In this document: piece by piece, positions 10,751 through 64,000 of the stretch | Layout: each line of letters begins with the position of its first letter | Position numbering within the stretch: position 1 is the first letter of the stretch | Assembly: GCA_964016885.1 (NCBI GenBank) | Contig: OZ024747.1 | Location: 45,880,001 to 45,944,000 of the forward strand | Length of the DNA: 64,000 nucleotides | Source of the DNA: Eledone cirrhosa | Lineage: Eukaryota | Direction: 5' to 3' | The notes under the pieces: generated by a model | Database searches by the model: none | What the model saw: only the letters and a program-made list of their open reading frames with translations | What the model was told of the DNA's origin: nothing | Program-made: the position numbers and the translations under genes

Positions 10751-12326
10751 GTTATATATATGTATACGTGTTATTACTATATAAGGAAATAGTGTTTGAA
10801 AACTGCAATGACTGCCCTTTTGGTTATTTAGAAAGTTTCTGTATTAATGTACCAATTAATTTAACCAGTTTCAACTGTGTTTACAGCTTTTCAAAAAGAA
10901 AAAGATTTTCGTTACAGTCTTTCGAAAAAACTTTTTTCCGTTTATGTTTACCTCACGTGGTTGGTCATTTGTATTATTACTGGGTACAAGGGACACAACT
11001 CGATGAGAATATGGTTCATTACCAGTTGCGTCAGTCAGGCTAGATTGTGTTATTTGTAAACCCCTGACGTTTTCATTGGACATGGCAGTAATTGAAATGT
11101 GTATGCAACTGAAGAGCGTATTAAGCCTGGTTGTAAATCTTGTAAATAAGGAATAATCTTTGTACACAAGGCAATATGGCAACGTTAGTATTTTCTCTCT
11201 AGATAAATTATAATTACATATCAGCTAATTACTTGAAACCTCCTTGTTTACAACTGGTATACTCGACATCTACAATTTCTACCTCATTTTTCATCAGTAC
11301 ATTTTTGTTTCCTTTAATCGTTTTCTCATATATTTTTATCTCCACTCCATCTCAATCCTCTTTTATCATGTAAATTGGGTGGCTCATTAACACTCATAAC
11401 ATACAGGCAGAGCATTTGAAAGCGTATAAAAATACAGGTAAGATTCAACAAAACTTTGTAATATTGTGTTAAAGCTTATATCCATCTCTTTTACCCATCT
11501 CATAATTCCCACCGACATGTGTTTCAATTAACTAGATTACCTTCCACCCTCATTTATTAGTCTTCTTATATTACTCGAGTTTTGCTTTGCATTTTAAAAC
11601 TGATACATGGTCTGTATAGATCTATCGATGATATATTCATACGGGCATACAGGTGAATGTGTGCATGTTTGAATATATCTATTCCTTTTTGGGAACTTTC
11701 AATGTCACTTAAACTCCCTGTAAAGAGAATACGCTTGGTGATCCCTCCTGTGTTATTACATAAGAAGACACCAATCGAAGTATGGAATGTATTTACACAT
11801 CAATAAAGTGATATTTAGTGAGACTAACGGCATCCATTGTCCTTCTGTCACCATATAACTGTTATCCACGCTTGTTATTCTTATATTTCCAAAAGCATTC
11901 TGAAGAAACGTATTAATGATTAAGAGCTCAGCAAAATAAATTAGTAATACATTGTTATTTTTATTGGGTATCTTCCTGCAATCTATTAACACCCTTCGAC
12001 GTATAATTATATATATATAATTATATATATAATAACAAATAACGAAACGAAATTAAATTTCGTTTCGTTTGTAACTCACTTTTGTATGACTGACGCTCAA
12101 ACAATTAAGTCAAAGATGTACATCCATATATGTATACTGAAATACTAGTATGTATATGAATACACACACGTATACATATGTAGATGTACCAAGTTTTTTT
12201 TCACTGATCACTTTACTGTGAGTGGCCAGCTATTCTGTATGTAAACACACAGACAAACCGGTTTTTAGAGTCATACTGGTTTTTGAGGAAACACCTTTCC
12301 TCTATTCTCCAGAAAGCCAGACAAGG

Positions 12327-12371
12327 AATATTGAACTAGTTTCGTTGTTGTTACAACTCATCAGCAATATT
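12327..12371 (-). ncRNA. type I hammerhead ribozyme; identical copies at 12796-12840 and 13265-13309
   Basis: AATATTG-CTGATGA-GTTGT-aaca-ACAAC-GAAACTAGTT-CAATATT. Confidence 0.85.
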
Positions 12372-13889
12372 TACCTATCTTCCGGCCTCTCTAGAGAATC
12401 GTAAAAGCACATATCGCTATATGCTTTTTCTATGAAAATTAGTAGTGGGCAGACCAACTTGCATAGAGTGTGAGTAAGTACCGGTTCAACGGAGACGATA
12501 AAAACAAATAACGAAACGAAATTAAATTTCGTTTCGTTTGTAACTCACTTTTGTATGACTGACGCTCAAACAATTAAGTCAAAGATGTACATCCATATAT
12601 GTATACTGAAATACTAGTATGTATATGAATACACACACGTATACATATGTAGATGTACCAAGTTTTTTTTCACTGATCACTTTACTGTGAGTGGCCAGCT
12701 ATTCTGTATGTAAACACACAGACAAACCGGTTTTTAGAGTCATACTGGTTTTTGAGGAAACACCTTTCCTCTATTCTCCAGAAAGCCAGACAAGGAATAT
12801 TGAACTAGTTTCGTTGTTGTTACAACTCATCAGCAATATTTACCTATCTTCCGGCCTCTCTAGAGAATCGTAAAAGCACATATCGCTATATGCTTTTTCT
12901 ATGAAAATTAGTAGTGGGCAGACCAACTTGCATAGAGTGTGAGTAAGTACCGGTTCAACGGAGACGATAAAAACAAATAACGAAACGAAATTAAATTTCG
13001 TTTCGTTTGTAACTCACTTTTGTATGACTGACGCTCAAACAATTAAGTCAAAGATGTACATCCATATATGTATACTGAAATACTAGTATGTATATGAATA
13101 CACACACGTATACATATGTAGATGTACCAAGTTTTTTTTCACTGATCACTTTACTGTGAGTGGCCAGCTATTCTGTATGTAAACACACAGACAAACCGGT
13201 TTTTAGAGTCATACTGGTTTTTGAGGAAACACCTTTCCTCTATTCTCCAGAAAGCCAGACAAGGAATATTGAACTAGTTTCGTTGTTGTTACAACTCATC
13301 AGCAATATTTACCTATCTTCCGGCCTCTCTAGAGAATCGTAAAAGCACATATCGCTATATGCTTTTTCTATGAAAATTAGTAGTGGGCAGACCAACTTGC
13401 ATAGAGTGTGAGTAAGTACCGGTTCAACGGATGAGTTGTAACAACAACGAAACTAGTTCAATATTCCTTGTCTGGCTTTCTGGAGAATAGAGGAAAGGTG
13501 TTTCCTCAAAAACCAGTATGACTCTAAAAACCGGTTTGTCTGTGTGTTTACATACAGAATAGCTGGCCACTCACAGTAAAGTGATCAGTGAAAAAAAACT
13601 TGGTACATCTACATATGTATACGTGTGTGTATTCATATACATACTAGTATTTCAGTATACATATATGGATGTACATCTTTGACTTAATTGTTTGAGCGTC
13701 AGTCATACAAAAGTGAGTTACAAACGAAACGAAATTTAATTTCGTTTCGTTATTTGTTTTTATCGTCTCCGTTGAACCGGTACTTACTCACACTCTATGC
13801 AAGTTGGTCTGCCCACTACTAATTTTCATAGAAAAAGCATATAGCGATATGTGCTTTTACGATTCTCTAGAGAGGCCGGAAGATAGGTA

Positions 13890-13934
13890 AATATTGCTGA
13901 TGAGTTGTAACAACAACGAAACTAGTTCAATATT
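13890..13934 (+). ncRNA. type I hammerhead ribozyme; identical copies at 14359-14403 and 14828-14872, truncated copy at 13430-13465
   Basis: 7-bp stem I, canonical core, 5-bp stem II, palindromic stem III ACTAGT, GUU triplet. Confidence 0.85.
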
Positions 13935-15205
13935 CCTTGTCTGGCTTTCTGGAGAATAGAGGAAAGGTGTTTCCTCAAAAACCAGTATGACTCTAAAAAC
14001 CGGTTTGTCTGTGTGTTTACATACAGAATAGCTGGCCACTCACAGTAAAGTGATCAGTGAAAAAAAACTTGGTACATCTACATATGTATACGTGTGTGTA
14101 TTCATATACATACTAGTATTTCAGTATACATATATGGATGTACATCTTTGACTTAATTGTTTGAGCGTCAGTCATACAAAAGTGAGTTACAAACGAAACG
14201 AAATTTAATTTCGTTTCGTTATTTGTTTTTATCGTCTCCGTTGAACCGGTACTTACTCACACTCTATGCAAATTGGTCTGCCCACTACTAATTTTCATAG
14301 AAAAAGCATATAGCGATATGTGCTTTTACGATTCTCTAGAGAGGCCGGAAGATAGGTAAATATTGCTGATGAGTTGTAACAACAACGAAACTAGTTCAAT
14401 ATTCCTTGTCTGGCTTTCTGGAGAATAGAGGAAAGGTGTTTCCTCAAAAACCAGTATGACTCTAAAAACCGGTTTGTCTGTGTGTTTACATACAGAATAG
14501 CTGGCCACTCACAGTAAAGTGATCAGTGAAAAAAAACTTGGTACATCTACATATGTATACGTGTGTGTATTCATATACATACTAGTATTTCAGTATACAT
14601 ATATGGATGTACATCTTTGACTTAATTGTTTGAGCGTCAGTCATACAAAAGTGAGTTACAAACGAAACGAAATTTAATTTCGTTTCGTTATTTGTTTTTA
14701 TCGTCTCCGTTGAACCGGTACTTACTCACACTCTATGCAAGTTGGTCTGCCCACTACTAATTTTCATAGAAAAAGCATATAGCGATATGTGCTTTTAAGA
14801 TTCTCTAGAGAGGCCGGAAGATAGGTAAATATTGCTGATGAGTTGTAACAACAACGAAACTAGTTCAATATTCCTTGTCTGGCTTTCTGGAGAATAGAGG
14901 AAAGGTGTTTCCTCAAAAACCAGTATGACTCTAAAAACCGGTTTGTCTGTGTGTTTACATACAGAATAGCTGGCCACTCACAGTAAAGTGATCAGTGAAA
15001 AAAAAACTTGGTACATCTACATATGTATACGTGTGTGTATTCATATACATACTAGTATTTCAGTATACATATATGGATGTACATCTTTGACTTAATTATA
15101 TATACAATTATATATATATATAATTACAGTCCAGGAAACAAGAAACAAACAAACAAGAAAATGTAATAACACGATATATATATATATATATATATATGAT
15201 AGATG

Positions 15206-18140: not shown

Positions 18141-18383
18141 CGTCTTTTTCCATTCTAATTTGAAAGTTCCATGTATTTTATTATGTGCATTTCAAAAATA
18201 AATATCATCCAGGGACGATATTTGCGTTCTCATCACATAAAATAGGGAGACATTATATGAAGCTTAAAAAAGACACTTGTGAGCAAGGTAGTGCCTAAAC
18301 AACATATGATAAATAAATTTATTTATCATATGTTGTTTAGACACTACCTTGCTCACAAGTGTCTTTTTTAAGCTTCATATAAT

Positions 18384-18567
18384 TGTTTCTACGTTAGGCA
18401 CAAGGCCAGCAATTACCCAGTGCATTATTGGTACTTTATTTTGTCGACCCCGTAAGGATGAAAGGCAAAGTTAAACTTGGCGGGATTTGAACCTAGAATG
18501 GCAAGGGCCGTAACTCTATACGTCAAAGCATGGCGTCCGACCCTTTACCAATACTGCCAATCCACCA
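18384..18567 (-). mobile_element. SINE with 15-bp TSD
   Basis: TAAGCTTCATATAAT at 18369-18383 and 18568-18582. Confidence 0.88.
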
Positions 18568-28497: not shown

Positions 28498-29010
28498 CGT
28501 ATCTCCAAAGAAATACGGTTTTAGGAAGCCGTAGCTATACAAACACCGGGAGGCTAACGCCCTCTGGTGATGTCCAGCAGAAGGGGGACAACCGTCTATG
28601 CATTTCAGGCTTAACTGACCTTTGACAGGACGGTCCCTCCCACCGCTTGCGACTGCTGGACTAGAAGACAGCCGAGAATATATACTTTGCTCGTCTGTGT
28701 AAATGAGGTGATTAATCTCATTTGCATATGAAGCTGCATAAGTTGGCTCAACTTATAATTTAAAAAAAAGAGCGAAATCCTATTTCTTATTTTATTATAA
28801 GTATATATTCTCGGTTGTCTTCTCGTCCAGCAGTCGCAATCGGTGGGAGGGACCGTCCTGACGAAGGCCAGTTAAGCCTGAAACGCATAGACGGTTGTCC
28901 CCCTTGCTTCTGCTTGGCATCACCAGAGGGCGTTAGCCCCCCGGTGTTTGCATAGCTACGGCTTCCTAAAACCGTATTTCTTTGGACAAATATTTATACA
29001 TACGAAATAT
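28495..29010. mobile_element. fold-back HHR element with ~185-bp arms and ~110-bp spacer
   Basis: 28504-28688 is inverted at 28799-28986. Adjacent to (TA)n. Confidence 0.8.
28852..28895 (+). ncRNA. minimal type I hammerhead ribozyme
   Basis: ACCGTC-CTGACGA-AGGC-cagttaa-GCCT-GAAACGCATA-GACGGT. The mirror arm has the palindromic form GAAATGCATA. Confidence 0.78.
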
Positions 29011-31836: not shown

Positions 31837-32340
31837 AATAAAGTAATTAAGTCAAATAATTGGCTTCGTTTATTAAAGGTGTACTGTCATATATATTTCG
31901 GTGACAGCCATCATTGGCTGTGATCTCTTCAGGCAGTCCGAATTGGTGTGGTAGAGATGGGTACACATGTTGTTGAAGTGTTTTACTCCGTCAATACTCC
32001 GATATGTCCAGCTCCTGGTTGGGTTGTTATTTCTCTGAGGAACTGTAATCATATGATTCCAGTTCCTCAGAAAAATAACAACCCAACCAGGAGCTGGACA
32101 TATCGACTTAACAACATGTGTACCTGTCTCTACCACACCAATTCGAACTGCCTGAAGAGGTCACAACCAACGATGGCTGTCACCGAAATATATATAGCAG
32201 TACATATTTAATAAACGAAGCCAAATCTTAAATATTTGACATAATTACTTTATTTTACATTACTCCGGAGTAACCAAACCAACCTGCGTACTTCGTCGAG
32301 TGCTCCAATCTGCATACAGAGGTGTCGGTAAACAAGCAAC
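31837..32340. mobile_element. fold-back HHR element with ~210-bp arms and unique tail
   Basis: Centre at about 32052 (CATATG). The tail has GAGTGCTC at 32298-32305. (TA)n on both sides. Confidence 0.8.
32147..32201 (+). ncRNA. type I hammerhead ribozyme; mirror copy at 31883-31937 on the minus strand
   Basis: ACTGC-CTGAAGA-GGTCACAACCA-acga-TGGCTGTCACC-GAAATATATATA-GCAGT, then AATAAA. Related to the 9344 HHR. Confidence 0.8.
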
Positions 32341-35400: not shown

Positions 35401-38400
35401 TCATAATTTGGTTTCCCCAAGAACGTCGTCGCTCTTTCTCTCCATTAACCCCCTATAGAACGCCGAGGTGGATGTTCCACCGATGCTAGTTCCCAGCTGG
35501 TAGAGGGCGGTGAGCGCTTGGAGACATTCCAGATTCCAAGCGCTATCCCTCGGTCTTTTCCTGATCCAGGACTGCTGCTCCGTCAAGGAGACGAGCTGAG
35601 GAAAAGCGCGTCTGGCAAACGGCGACCACACCTGTTCACCGTCATGGAAGCACCAGAGATGTCGCATCCTCAGCGCATGTATGCGCATCATCAGCGACGG
35701 CATGCCTAGTCCTCCACGCAACGGGTGTTGACATCTAATGGATCGTCTGACCATAGGAGCACGTCCCTTTCACAAAAAGCGGAAGAGAAGGCGCTCCATT
35801 TTGGTCAGAGTTGGGCGGGGTCAAGGTACGACGGTCAGGCGGTAGCAGATGACGGACGCTATGTACGCATTCGCCACCTGCGCCCGACCTTTTAGAGACA
35901 GCCTCCTCTCGGCCCATTTCTGAGTGAGAGAGGCCACCCTGCTCGTCACCTCGCTCCAGTTTTTCTCAATCTGGAGGTCCGGTCCGAAACAGACCCCGAG
36001 CAATTTAACCGGTCCACAATTTAAGCACCCCACGACGCTGTCGGACGGCATGGACTTGTCTCTCCAGGTGCCTTTTCCTGGTATAGTTTTGCTCCTGTCA
36101 CCGCTTCGTGTTTATTGAGAACGGGGCCGAACATCTGGACGTGTTTGGTGCTCGACACCACCACAGTGACGTCGTCAGGGTAAGCTGACACGGATCTCCC
36201 GCATCCCAGTTTGCGTGGGAACACCCTCATCGTTTCCAATTTGTGCAGTAACGGCGCGAGGGCCAGTACGTACAAGAGGAACGAGAGGGGGCAACTCTGG
36301 CGGACCGAGCACATGATGCTGAAAGGCTGCGACAGGTGACCATTGACCCTCACAATCTAGCAGATGTCACTGTGCATCGCAGCGATCCAGCCCCTAAAAA
36401 CGGCCGCTTCAAGGACGCAGCCAGGTACCGATGGTCGACAATATCAAATGCTTTAGATTGATCCAAGTTGATCAGGGCCCCACCCGTTCCAGGTTCCTTA
36501 ACCACCCTCTCTATGATGTATCGCATGAGATGGAGGGTGTCGTGGATGGATCTGTCCGGAATCGCGCATGCCTGCGCCTCTCCCACCAGATCACTGACGA
36601 CAAGCGCCAATCTCTTTGCTAACACCTTGGTCAAAATCTTAAACTCTGCGTTTAGCAGAGTTATGGGCCTGAAGTTGTCTATAACGTCCCCATTGTCTAT
36701 AACGCCCCCCTTTTCTCTCAGCATCGCCACCACTCCCCGGCTCACAAAAGTGGGAATGCTCCTGTTCTGCTGCAAGTTGCAGTAGACATCTGCCAAGAGG
36801 TCGCCGAACAAGTCTGGCATATACGCATAAAGTTCGTAGGGCTACCATCCAAACCTGGCGATTTACCCATCGTGCAGTTAGACATCGCTTCCCGTATTTC
36901 ACCTGCTGTTATCGGCTTTTCGCAGCACTGCGCTGCAGTCGTCGAGAGCCGCGGCACACCGTCGAGGTATGCACTGAAGTCCATACTCCGATCCGGCCCG
37001 CCGCCGCTCCCGAACAATTGACCAAAGTGTTGTTGAAAAGCCGCACACATCAGCTCGGGTTCGAGCAACCTGCTCCCGTTTTGACCAGGCAAAGACGGAA
37101 TTGTGGACTTGTTGCCATGTCGCGCCTCCACCAACCGGGCCCATTGAACGGCTTTCGTCCCCTCGTGTCTTAGAGCACACGCTCTAGCTCTGACAACGCA
37201 GCCTTCGTGCTTTGCGTTGAAGAATTGGTCGAGTGCCAATCTCACCGCAAGCACGTCGGTTGCGATGCCTGTCCTAAACGCTTCTTCTAGCTTTCTAACT
37301 CTCCATCTACTCTACTTTCCTCTATCACTCCTTTGCTAAACCTTATCGATTCTACTCTAATAGCCCTTTTCAGGGTAAACCACCACCTATTGTTGACTAT
37401 CGCATCCGTCAACGCACGCTTAACTAATTCGCTAATCCGGTCTCTGTAAGCTATGCGCACCGGAAAAGGCGCATTCAGCTTCCAGTATCCGGGCCCTTGC
37501 CTATGGAGTCTATCTAAGTCAAATTCACAGATCACAAATTTGTGGTCCGTGTAGTCGACACTAGCCATATCTGTTTCCCTACAGAATACCCTATCTAAAT
37601 ATGATCTGGATGACCCGATGCGGTTTGCCCATGTCCACATTGGCACATTCGGATAATCCAGTCTATATCTGTCAGACGTCTAAGCAGGTTGTTGAGGCTT
37701 TTACACCCTCCTGCCCTGTGTACTAGCCCCACATAATCCCAGTATGCATCTAAGATACCGTTCCAGTCGCCCACTAACACTAAAGAGCGGGACGTTCCAA
37801 GAAAGTTCTCTAGACGTCTGAAGAAATCTGGCCATCCTGCCCCTCTTGGGGCGTAGACGGCTACTTGTCTGAAAGCATTGCCTTCGCTGCCGGTCACGTC
37901 CAGCACCACCGACTTTCCTTCTGGGTCCAGGAAGATGTCCCATATGGCGAGATCCAAGCCTCTCCGAAAAAGCACGGCAACTCCTCCCCCTGATCCTGGA
38001 CGGCTGGGAGATGCGTATACACCGTAGCTGCCGAAGATCAGTGCGAAGGCTTGTGCTTCGGAGATTCTGGTCTCGCTGATGGCCACCACATCTATGTTTA
38101 GTGACCTGAGGTCGTTGAGCAGGTGACCCTGCTTCCAAGATGACCCCAGGCCACGTACATTTATACTGCCTATTCTAAGTACGGCTATGTTGGATGGAAA
38201 CCGGGGTAAGTGAGAAAGGATCACTTACCTTGATCGTGTGGTGAAGGGACAGTAGAACCGTCCCTTTGGCTGGTCATGGGTGTTTCCAAGATGATGTCCG
38301 TGTATATCCTCTTGGTAACCGACCCTCTGAAGTCTCCAACTGCGTTGGGGAATTTTTCTTTTAAAAGTTTGTAATGTTCTATTTTGATTTCAATGATGTC

Positions 38401-49518: not shown

Positions 49519-52249
<2,731 letters not shown>

Positions 52250-61578: not shown

Positions 61579-62704
61579 GGTGGCTGCCAACTCGTTTTCG
61601 AGTACGGCCACTACTTTATATCCATGTAGGAGAACCCCTACCGATGCGCTGAACGAGTGTGACTTTTAGTCCAGCCAGCGACTTGAAAACACTAGTACAA
61701 ACACTACACTTGTGACAATTATTGACACATAGTGCTGGGCCCATGGTACCATGTGACGACAAGTGCAGAGAGATCTCCAGATATAAAGCAATGCCTGTGC
61801 CGTGAAGCTTTTATAGTGAGCAAAGGCACTGCACAAAGCCAGTCCCACTCTCTTAACCAAGATGATATTTACCAAAAAGAAGAACAAGTCAACATCATTG
61901 GATACCATCAGGGTTGCAGGTGTTATATCAGAGTTTTCCTTCTCCTAGAATTCTGCCTTGACAAAAGCTAAGGGTTCATCTCTCCCGTTATATAATACAT
62001 ACATACATACATACATACATACATACATACATACATACATACATACATACATACATACATGTGCGTGTGTATACATAAGTCGGTATTAGAAATCCAATAC
62101 GAAAGAAAAATACAATAACAGTATTAGTTTAAAGGATGATAGAACAGGGAAAATGTCTTAACATTTCGGACGATTGTCCTTTATTGGAAAAGAGCAAAAT
62201 AGAGAAAAGTGGATATACGAGACAGAGAAAAAAAAGGGAAATTGATGAGAATTTTAAAAGATAAACGGAGAAAAGGGAATAGAGGGGACACCTATGTTGC
62301 TGATAATCAACCGTCTTTAGAAAAGGAAGTCAGAAAAGGTATTTAAAGGAAGACTGAAACGTTAAATAGTTGATAAAAAGAGAAATGTATTTAGTATTGT
62401 TGAAATAAATATACATGTGTGTAAGTGTGTGTGCGCTTATTTGTGAGAGTCGAAAAAACGTTTTCGTACGTTGGAGTGTAGCATTTTTCGAGCAATTATT
62501 GTGTGGTGTTATTTTTTTAATGTGTGTTTGTGTGTGTTTGTGTGTGACATAGTTCCTGTGAGTGAGGGTCAGAGTCCAACGAAGTATTACGGACTTGTTA
62601 TGGATGGTTGTGGCCGAAGCGACGCGGTTCGGATGACATAGAATTATGAAAATCAAATCATCTGGCGTGCGGCTACGAGTGGGACTGTAAAAGGGAGGAA
62701 TTAA

Positions 62705-63605
62705 TGAAGAGATGTAGATATATGGATGGACATACATATATGACGAGATGTAAATATATGGATGGACATACATACATGGATGGACATACATATAGGACGA
62801 GATATAGATATATGGATGGAGATACATATATGAAGAGATTTAGATATATGTAAGGACATACATATATGGATGGACATACATATATGCTAAGATATAGATA
62901 TATGGATGGACATACATATATGAAGAGATGTAGATATATGGATGGACATACATATATGACGAGATCTAGATATATGGAAGGACATACACAGATGATGAGA
63001 TGTAGATATATGAAGGGACATACATATATGAAGAGATATAGATATATGGATGGACATACATATATGAAGAGATATAGATATATGGATGGACATACATATA
63101 TGAAGAGATGTAGATATATGGATGGACATACATATATGACGAGATCTAGATATATGGAAGGACATACATAGATGATGAGAAGTAGATTTATGAAGGGACA
63201 TACATATATGAAGAGATATAGATATATGGATGGACATACATATATGAAGAGATATAGATATATGGATGGACATACATATATGACGTGATGTAGATATATC
63301 GATGGACATACATATATGACGATATATAGATATATGGAAGGACATACATATATGACGAGATGTAGATATATGGAAGGACATACATATATGAAGAGATGTA
63401 GATATATGAAGGGAGATACATATATGAAGAGATGTAGATATATGGAGGGACATACATATATGATGAGATATAGATATATGGAAGGACATACATATATTAA
63501 GAGATATAGATATATGGATGGACATACATATATGACGAGATATAGATATATGGATGGACATACATATATGAAGAGATATAGATATATGAAGGGACATACA
63601 TATAT
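62705..63605. repeat. 36-bp minisatellite, about 25 units
   Basis: Unit ATGAAGAGATATAGATATATGGATGGACATACATAT. Confidence 0.9.
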
Positions 63606-64000
63606 GTATGAAGTAAATTAGCAGGCATTTTAGTATACCTGTAGTTAATTGTTTTGTCTCTCCACGCTCTGAAGTTAATTCATTCTTTTATCTTTTTATG
63701 GCTGTTTATATAGTATCAGTTCATGGCGGTGAATTATCGGAATTTTAGACGTCGGTTTTTTGTTCCGGCATTTGTAGTTTTTTCCAAATTGAAGGATGAG
63801 TATTTAAACTTTATTTTATTCAGAGTTAAGGCTCTATTGATTTTTCTCTGGATTTCTGTGGATAAATCAATGTCTTGATTTTTTTTTAATTGAGTTTGTA
63901 TTATTTTCCCACATCTTACGTTAATTATTTTTCCATTTTGACGTTATAGTCACTTATATATTATGAAATACTGTTGGCTTCACGCTCGCAATAATTTCTA

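Follow-up and report, generated by a model that had tools for sequence, protein, structure and literature searches.

An extended hammerhead stem in an abundant protein-free retrozyme of Eledone cirrhosa, a probable RNA-level rod in arrays of Penelope-like layout

Viroids and viroid-like circular RNAs that carry a hammerhead are small, highly paired circles with a ribozyme, and the circle predicted for the element described below resembles them. In animals, the closest described systems are the non-LTR retrozymes of coral, mussel and axolotl, characterised in the parts of the account used here by tandem units of 150-450 bp with one type I hammerhead each, a GC content below 50%, no coding frame and a highly self-paired predicted circle in which the ribozyme is free (PMC7229834). 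They are known as both linear and circular RNA, and their target-site duplications, when present, exceed 4 bp (PMC7229834). Vertebrate retrozymes, with units of 51-972 bp, are treated in the cited sections as non-autonomous Penelope-like elements, which co-occur with RT and GIY-YIG elements and are linked to Penelope by pLTR homology (10.64898/2026.07.22.740005). In the portions cited of both sources, the copying of retrozyme circles by Penelope-type enzymes is proposed and not demonstrated (PMC7229834; 10.64898/2026.07.22.740005). The EN+ Penelope-like elements themselves are reported to leave an inverted copy and a tail at one end only (PMC8557442), and the anole element (PLE) to nick both strands and to begin reverse transcription at two internal start sites (PMC11167929).

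Here we describe an array in a window of 64,000 nucleotides from Eledone cirrhosa (contig OZ024747.1, positions 45,880,001 to 45,944,000), to which all window coordinates refer. It is a tandem repeat of a 469-bp unit (99% matches, GC 0.36), laid out in two head-to-head arms and flanked by (AT)n (Table 1). The hammerhead unit predicted by the first-pass annotation recurs across the arms with one type I motif in each, every unit having a single core that is confined to one of its two strands. The window array contains no stop-to-stop frame of at least 180 amino acids and no RT plus GIY-YIG frame; the element is not an autonomous Penelope-like element. As far as sequence can tell, it appears to have every feature of an animal non-LTR retrozyme that was testable here, from the tandem units with one type I hammerhead, low GC and lack of a coding frame to the self-paired circle with a free ribozyme. 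The differences are a unit just over the animal size range, although within the vertebrate one, a GUU triplet in most Eledone cirrhosa copies, and head-to-head arms with fixed ends at two points, together with a skew to A>G, none of which the cited parts of the animal account describe (PMC7229834). In a search of mostly open literature, neither two-armed arrays nor A>G footprints were found reported for retrozymes. Unlike viroid-like RNAs, the element carries a ribozyme in just one of its polarities, and the predicted circle leaves it unblocked; the element is also genome-encoded and spread as DNA copies.

The explanation that we favour, and consider likely, is that the long rod across the predicted cut site is the extended stem I of the hammerhead in an abundant protein-free non-LTR retrozyme; the rod would form in RNA and close a monomer or circle, which a Penelope-type RT in turn would copy into (AT)n.

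Table 1. Coordinates of the array and its parts in the window.
Feature	Position	Strand	Remarks
Left arm	12029..13431	-	3.0 units; tail-bearing outer end (RNA 3') at unit position 305; inner end at 310
Right arm	13430..15097	+	3.6 units; unit position 441 (in ribozyme core) at the inner end, 231 at the outer, tail-less end
Head-to-head junction	13430..13431	.	2-nt overlap (GA) common to both arms
Rod, 5' strand (extended stem I)	13862..13896	+	Stem I proper 13890-13896; GGUA bulge 13886-13889
Type I hammerhead core	13897..13927	+	CUGAUGA 13897-13903; GAAA 13918-13921; triplet GUU
Stem II of hammerhead	13904-13908/13913-13917	+	5 bp
Stem III of hammerhead, palindromic ACUAGU	13921-13926	+	Read from the sequence
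Further intact hammerhead cores	Starts 14366, 14835 (+); 13302, 12833, 12364 (-)		Read from the sequence
Rod, 3' strand	13928..13957	+	5' end of predicted monomer
469-nt monomer, cut site to cut site	13928..14396	+	Predicted multibranched circle, closed by the rod
Hairpin GAGGAAA/TTTCCTC	13959..13976	+	Both-side changes at 4/7 pairs (12 monomers)
Hairpin TCTGTGTG/CATACAGA	14008..14027	+	Within the long arm that GTATGACT/AGTCATAC closes
Long TA/CA-rich hairpin	14072..14143	+	Ends 15 nt short of the no-tail end point
Tail (70-74 nt), bounded by the fixed end points at unit 231-235 and 305	14159..14232	+	
13-bp CGAAAC hairpin within tail	14192-14220	+	
Octamer ATGCAAAT	14266..14273	+	Found in 11/12 aligned monomers, families A and B
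Hairpin AAAAGCATAT/ATGTGCTTTT	14302..14327	+	Adjoins the rod
Left flank AATT(AT)5AATTA	12005..12023	.	Near-repeat AATT(AT)6AATTA at 15106-15126

The core has CUGAnGA, GAAA and NUH at a three-way junction with an open stem I, which makes the hammerhead type I, and because its triplet ends at 13927 the cut is predicted between 13927 and 13928. In Rfam the core matches Hammerhead_HH9 (RF02275; E 9.6e-8, 37.7 bits against a cut-off of 52); no match in the Rfam scan of the window reached the gathering score, and by score the motif is not a member of HH9. The two have in common the type I topology, the bulged stem I and the CUGAUGAG...CGAAAC core, while the window motif differs in a shorter stem III, a U at the cut site and the sub-cut-off score. 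Some Rfam miRNA and sRNA matches in the unit, scoring far under their cut-offs, were discarded. In the folding model the pairing probabilities are 0.63-0.94 for stem I and 0.89-0.99 for stem II; stem III, with a 2-nt loop, cannot be formed by this model, which predicts instead an alternative pairing of the core with stem III (0.92). Being only 1-2 bp long and palindromic, stem III probably needs a dimer for cleavage. A weak palindromic stem III is also described for axolotl HHR_Amex1 (PMC7229834), and of nine Xenopus retrozyme dimers one cut in vitro, according to the part of the study used here (10.64898/2026.07.22.740005).

It had been proposed in the first-pass annotation that stem I is prolonged into a long rod across the cut site. 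Indeed, all the strands named there are present and form a duplex of 28 bp (13862-13896/13928-13957; 12+6+3+7 bp, -31.4 kcal/mol) with a 4x2 internal loop, a UA bulge and three G-U pairs in the rod proper. As to register, AGATAGG/CCTTGTCT is an alternative to the predicted GCCGGA/UCUGGC plus AGG/CCU. The unit is also as rich in hairpins as had been described, all five being found (at 13959, 14008, 14072, 14193 and 14302). Three of them have one G-U pair each, one of these also an A-C, and two are pure Watson-Crick; two of the five, in the form first written down, leave loops of 1-2 nt and are predicted one pair shorter or shifted.

Folding energies were compared with shuffled sequences on both strands. 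The region 13855-13965, which was picked for its rod, folds at -36.1 on the plus strand (z -4.10, 1/200 shuffles as good) and at -21.0 on the minus strand (z -2.09, 4/200). As a circle, the whole unit reaches -152.0 on the ribozyme strand (z -9.94) and -114.5 on the opposite strand (z -4.75), with 0/60 shuffles as good in either case, which bears out the strand asymmetry anticipated from the first look at the sequence. In the folding model the circle is highly self-paired and leaves the ribozyme free. G-U pairs account for 14 of its 156 pairs on the ribozyme strand and for 4 of 144 on the opposite one. When G-U pairing is forbidden, the strand difference is gone (-108.5 vs -105.6; at most 5 kcal/mol in 6/6 monomers); the difference thus rests on G-U pairs. 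Low z values are by no means exceptional in this genome: unrelated fold-back hairpins bring 2 of 11 control stretches of 469 nt from the window to z -9.4 and -23.7, the other nine lying between -3.1 and +1.0.

Such hairpins raise the question of whether the pairing is a DNA-level by-product of microsatellite palindromes and fold-back copying, in an array that is merely a recombination-expanded satellite. The TA/CA-rich composition of the 14072-14143 hairpin, the folding of the opposite strand (z -4.8) and the perfect fold-back hairpins common in the window would all suit such an origin. It is nevertheless largely refuted, and we hold it very improbable, given the dependence of the strand difference on G-U pairs, the compensatory changes in a sister family, the thousands of dispersed insertions with fixed ends and the strand-specific A>G skew, all of which point away from DNA. 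The strand difference borne by G-U pairs and the compensatory changes support the rod as an RNA-level, strand-specific structure, which likely forms as RNA in the cell. Real and RNA-level as it probably is, the rod looks ordinary for animal retrozymes and alone adds little, compact self-paired circles being the state in which these are described.

Exact core patterns were searched in the 3.0 Gb genome with reversed patterns as controls, and 6,269 GUU and 3,254 GUC/GUA cores were found, about 9,500 in all (reversed controls 0). Among the fetched loci, the monomers of the window's own family (family A) fall into subfamilies 86-100% identical to the window unit, while those of a sister family (family B) measure 420-444 bp and are about 61% identical to it. 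The family B loci L103, L127, L179 and L239 have the core CUGACGA or CUGAUGA, a U-U at the base of stem II and the triplet GUA; in L239 the TA-rich hairpin is greatly expanded. The core and the stem III palindrome are kept in both families. An HH9 profile search of the genome returned only an unrelated hammerhead family (family C, L069-L098), with the core variant UUGAUAAG, a rod of its own (about 30 bp, z -6.1) and both tandem and inverted copies; as its rod is the stronger one, long rods recur among the hammerhead repeats of Eledone cirrhosa. A 99-base query found no diverged rods, a negative that carries no weight. The unit was also found, with its end points unchanged, in contigs of four sequencing runs from four organisms. 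In run X4 from organism B, a 503-base contig spans the whole unit (window 13840-14308) with three substitutions, all A>G.

The covariation that the first-pass annotation expected among diverged homologues is seen between the families and is weak within one of them. In sequence-only alignments of family B to the window fold, 15-16 of 144 pairs have changes on both sides (slid controls 3-9), and, with two columns of slack allowed, 101, 78 and 55 of the 144 pairs reappear when three B monomers are folded independently. Over 12 monomers, both-side changes occur at 24 of 141 pairs against 13.8+-2.3 in shuffles, mostly from the single evolutionary split between A and B and with the window copy as reference structure. 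The ribozyme strand folds lower than the opposite strand in 11/11 other monomers. Inside family A the signal of structure is weak: 29 of the 59 shared pair variants preserve the pair and 30 break it, and variable columns number 53/252 among paired and 45/157 among unpaired ones. Stem I proper covaries cleanly between A and B and the outer rod is out of register; because of these register shifts, the column-wise covariation of the outer rod (16/28 pairs) is distrusted. In each B monomer, however, the rod refolds independently with letters different from those of A (z -2.3 to -3.0), L127 being the sole case of three without a strand difference (z -2.32 vs -2.46).

The question of what the rod is for was answered by the first-pass annotation with selection at the RNA level and a rod that would hold the monomer ends together for ligation; in the strict form of this view the hammerhead itself would re-ligate the circle. 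In the folding model the two ends of a monomer, 5' and 3', are indeed brought together by the rod, in linear and circular folds alike; family B retains the rod in other letters, the G-U pair U15-G420 of the unit is unchanged in 12/12 monomers, and type I hammerheads with tertiary contacts are described as able to ligate (PMC7229834). In the predicted fold of a tandem transcript, though, the rod arises locally over every cut site and would therefore hold neighbours together after cutting; for a monomer to close, the strands of a -31 kcal/mol duplex would have to be swapped. Moreover, the axolotl and mussel retrozymes are reported, in the part of the study cited, to self-ligate to 1-3%, against 30-80% with RtcB (PMC7229834). 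Nor does conservation of the rod single out ligation, because the rod also stabilises the fold for cleavage. That the rod exists for the sake of re-ligation by the ribozyme seems unlikely to us; it may plausibly present the ends to a ligase.

To find out how the element spreads is a matter of its ends. Here 140 insertions were collected from 39 best BLAST matches (the window included), 47 core-pattern sites and 60 sites found by a 305-end pattern, split stretches being merged. Of these, 98 have the head-to-head layout, and 86 of the 98 combine an arm ending within unit positions 298-308 (at 305 in almost every case) with an arm ending within 226-236, statistics to be read with 60 of the 140 sites having been selected by their 305 end. 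In the remaining 12 one end is cut off, broken or elsewhere, and in no case among the 98 do both arms share one end point. Exact 305 ends number 2,352 in the genome, over which thousands of insertions with fixed ends are dispersed. Family B ends at points homologous to the two of family A, and contigs of run X1 have the same three ends as the window family. Inner ends, on the other hand, are scattered over the unit: 48 of the 86 junctions overlap by at least one base and 12 are flush. No pile-up of inner ends was seen at the predicted cut site (9/196 vs 5 expected); several run past it, and both arms cross it in 60 of the 86 insertions. The flanks of the fetched insertions are AT-rich or (TA)n, and the near-duplicated flanks of the window array (19/21 nt, inside (AT)n) are a candidate target-site duplication of about 20 bp.

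With its two fixed ends, inverted arm and (AT)n target, the element appears to behave like one mobilised by Penelope. It resembles the EN+ elements in the inverted, 5'-truncated copy, the one-sided tail, the AT-rich or (TA)n target and the two internal starts, and differs from them, as far as the cited parts go, in lacking a reading frame, in a tail of 70-74 nt instead of 30-40 and in arms that are multi-unit arrays (PMC8557442; PMC11167929). The insertion ends also give exact predicted start sites (unit 231-235 and 305). RT plus GIY-YIG reading frames exist in the genome and within the window, a co-occurrence also described for vertebrate retrozymes (10.64898/2026.07.22.740005). As to an autonomous partner, no similarity to the unit was found in 47 GIY-YIG loci (50 fetched, three excluded for holding copies of the unit), with 150 of 10,597 candidates scored; the link to Penelope is accordingly an insertion signature here, without pLTR homology in the 47 loci, unlike the pLTR homology of the vertebrate case (10.64898/2026.07.22.740005). 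In one RT-GIY-YIG family with a CxxC linker (L232, L233 and L236), the copies likewise have two end points, spaced about 55 nt, ahead of (AT)n, and bear a minimal hammerhead-like motif; L231 has a frame of 1,096 aa.

The G-U pairs were taken by the first-pass annotation as a sign of selection on RNA. That the structure is strand-specific and RNA-level holds, but selection has a rival in editing, because at paired sites the fixed variants lean towards A>G. Variants were called for 124 of 139 insertions, with the majority base among their closest insertions as reference; 15 were dropped for want of close neighbours or as mosaic (L059). Of the 71 private variants that all copies of an insertion carry, 27 are A>G and 8 are T>C (p 0.001); some of these events may come from unsampled parents, and selection may add to the skew. 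The A>G changes lie at 19 distinct positions, and T>C at most at 8. At paired sites the fixed counts are 22 A>G and 4 T>C, with 2 C>T and 6 G>A; the excess of C>U that mere tolerance of G-U would also predict is not found. Single-copy variants (n=332) show 32 A>G and 37 T>C, and A>G against C>T differs between fixed and single-copy variants (p 0.001). The paired share of fixed A>G is marginal (22/27 vs 64%, p 0.07). ADAR has a 5'-neighbour preference, and the 5' neighbour of paired A>G is U or A in 18/22 and G in 1/22, again marginal (p 0.05 and 0.07). Five of the 27 lie in the rod (unit positions 5, 26 and 414). Some rod G-U pairs may thus be marks of ADAR-type A-to-I editing instead of selection. 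This reading has to reckon with read-through transcripts of two-armed loci, which are double-stranded too.

The fixed variants occur in both arms in 44 cases and are confined to one arm in three. The simplest reading is that one RNA monomer was edited while folded and copied many times from two start points, and the shared variants point to one template per insertion. Against the one-template model counts L059:1044-5172 (G000:C3:73498500-73508000), because its arms belong to two different subfamilies, the left one 96% identical and the right one the window's own, with a mixed copy near the junction; a template switch is possible.

A template in the form of an uncut linear multimer, with a slow or dispensable ribozyme and hairpins that serve protein binding and the two start sites, has to be weighed against this. 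GUU hammerheads cut more slowly, and GUU cores exceed GUC/GUA in the genome. GUU is, all the same, listed as an active hammerhead cleavage site (PMC3138052). Stem III is minimal, and in homogeneous arrays a multimer would also yield shared variants. In the parts cited for the anole PLE, unprocessed RNA is the main substrate in vitro and insertion is independent of ribozyme cleavage (PMC11167929). An edited multimer, however, would give single-copy edits, and the skew is confined to fixed variants, as expected when one edited monomer is copied many times; arrays of up to about 31 units and the core and palindrome kept in both families likewise speak for a processed template, and the uncut multimer seems to us a doubtful one.

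For the favoured retrozyme reading, a life cycle can be outlined. The array would be transcribed, and the rod would fold locally and position the core, the short palindromic stem III probably needing a dimer to cut. Cut monomers would exchange rod strands and be closed, a host RtcB-type ligase being a likelier agent than the ribozyme. The folded RNA may occasionally be A-to-I edited, A-U becoming G-U, and fold-keeping changes are probably also favoured. A Penelope-type protein would nick both DNA strands and initiate synthesis at two places inside the unit, both lying 13-15 nt on the 3' side of a long hairpin; copying would run round the template, and the two cDNAs would join at their 3' ends into head-to-head arms. 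The A>G skew suggests that the RNA was folded and edited in the cell, and the proposed cycle becomes amenable to test in vitro. A more tentative extension, which we put forward as possible only, is that the element owes most of its heritable change to host A-to-I editing of the folded circle, ADAR converting A-U to G-U pairs in the rod and the hairpins and the edits being stamped into every unit of both arms by Penelope-type rolling-circle copying from two start sites set by the hairpins. If true, the arrays would be a genomic record of RNA structure in vivo and a read-out of reverse transcription on a circular template. A caution follows that G-U-rich stems in retroposed DNA may arise by editing and not by selection alone.

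As to transcription, the octamer ATGCAAAT is a possible candidate for a promoter element; the other five copies of the window array read ATGCAAGT at this place. Newt satellite 2 is driven by an snRNA-type promoter, according to the part of the report used here (PMC2220036).

Several other features were observed in the window. A truncated Penelope-like element at 49737-52172 has an RT plus GIY-YIG frame (50303-51526, minus strand) and is flanked by 647-bp inverted repeats, 99% complementary. A lone hammerhead-like motif with a 7-bp stem I, CTGACGA...GAAACGCATA, lies at 28858-28888 (plus strand). Two near-perfect fold-back hairpins occupy 18235-18385 and 31901-32185, with arms of about 70 and 130 bp, respectively. 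An Endonuclease/exonuclease/phosphatase frame (PF03372, E 1e-12) at 37595-38221 on the minus strand is probably a LINE fragment, and a 36-bp tandem repeat of 25 copies is found at 62704-63606.
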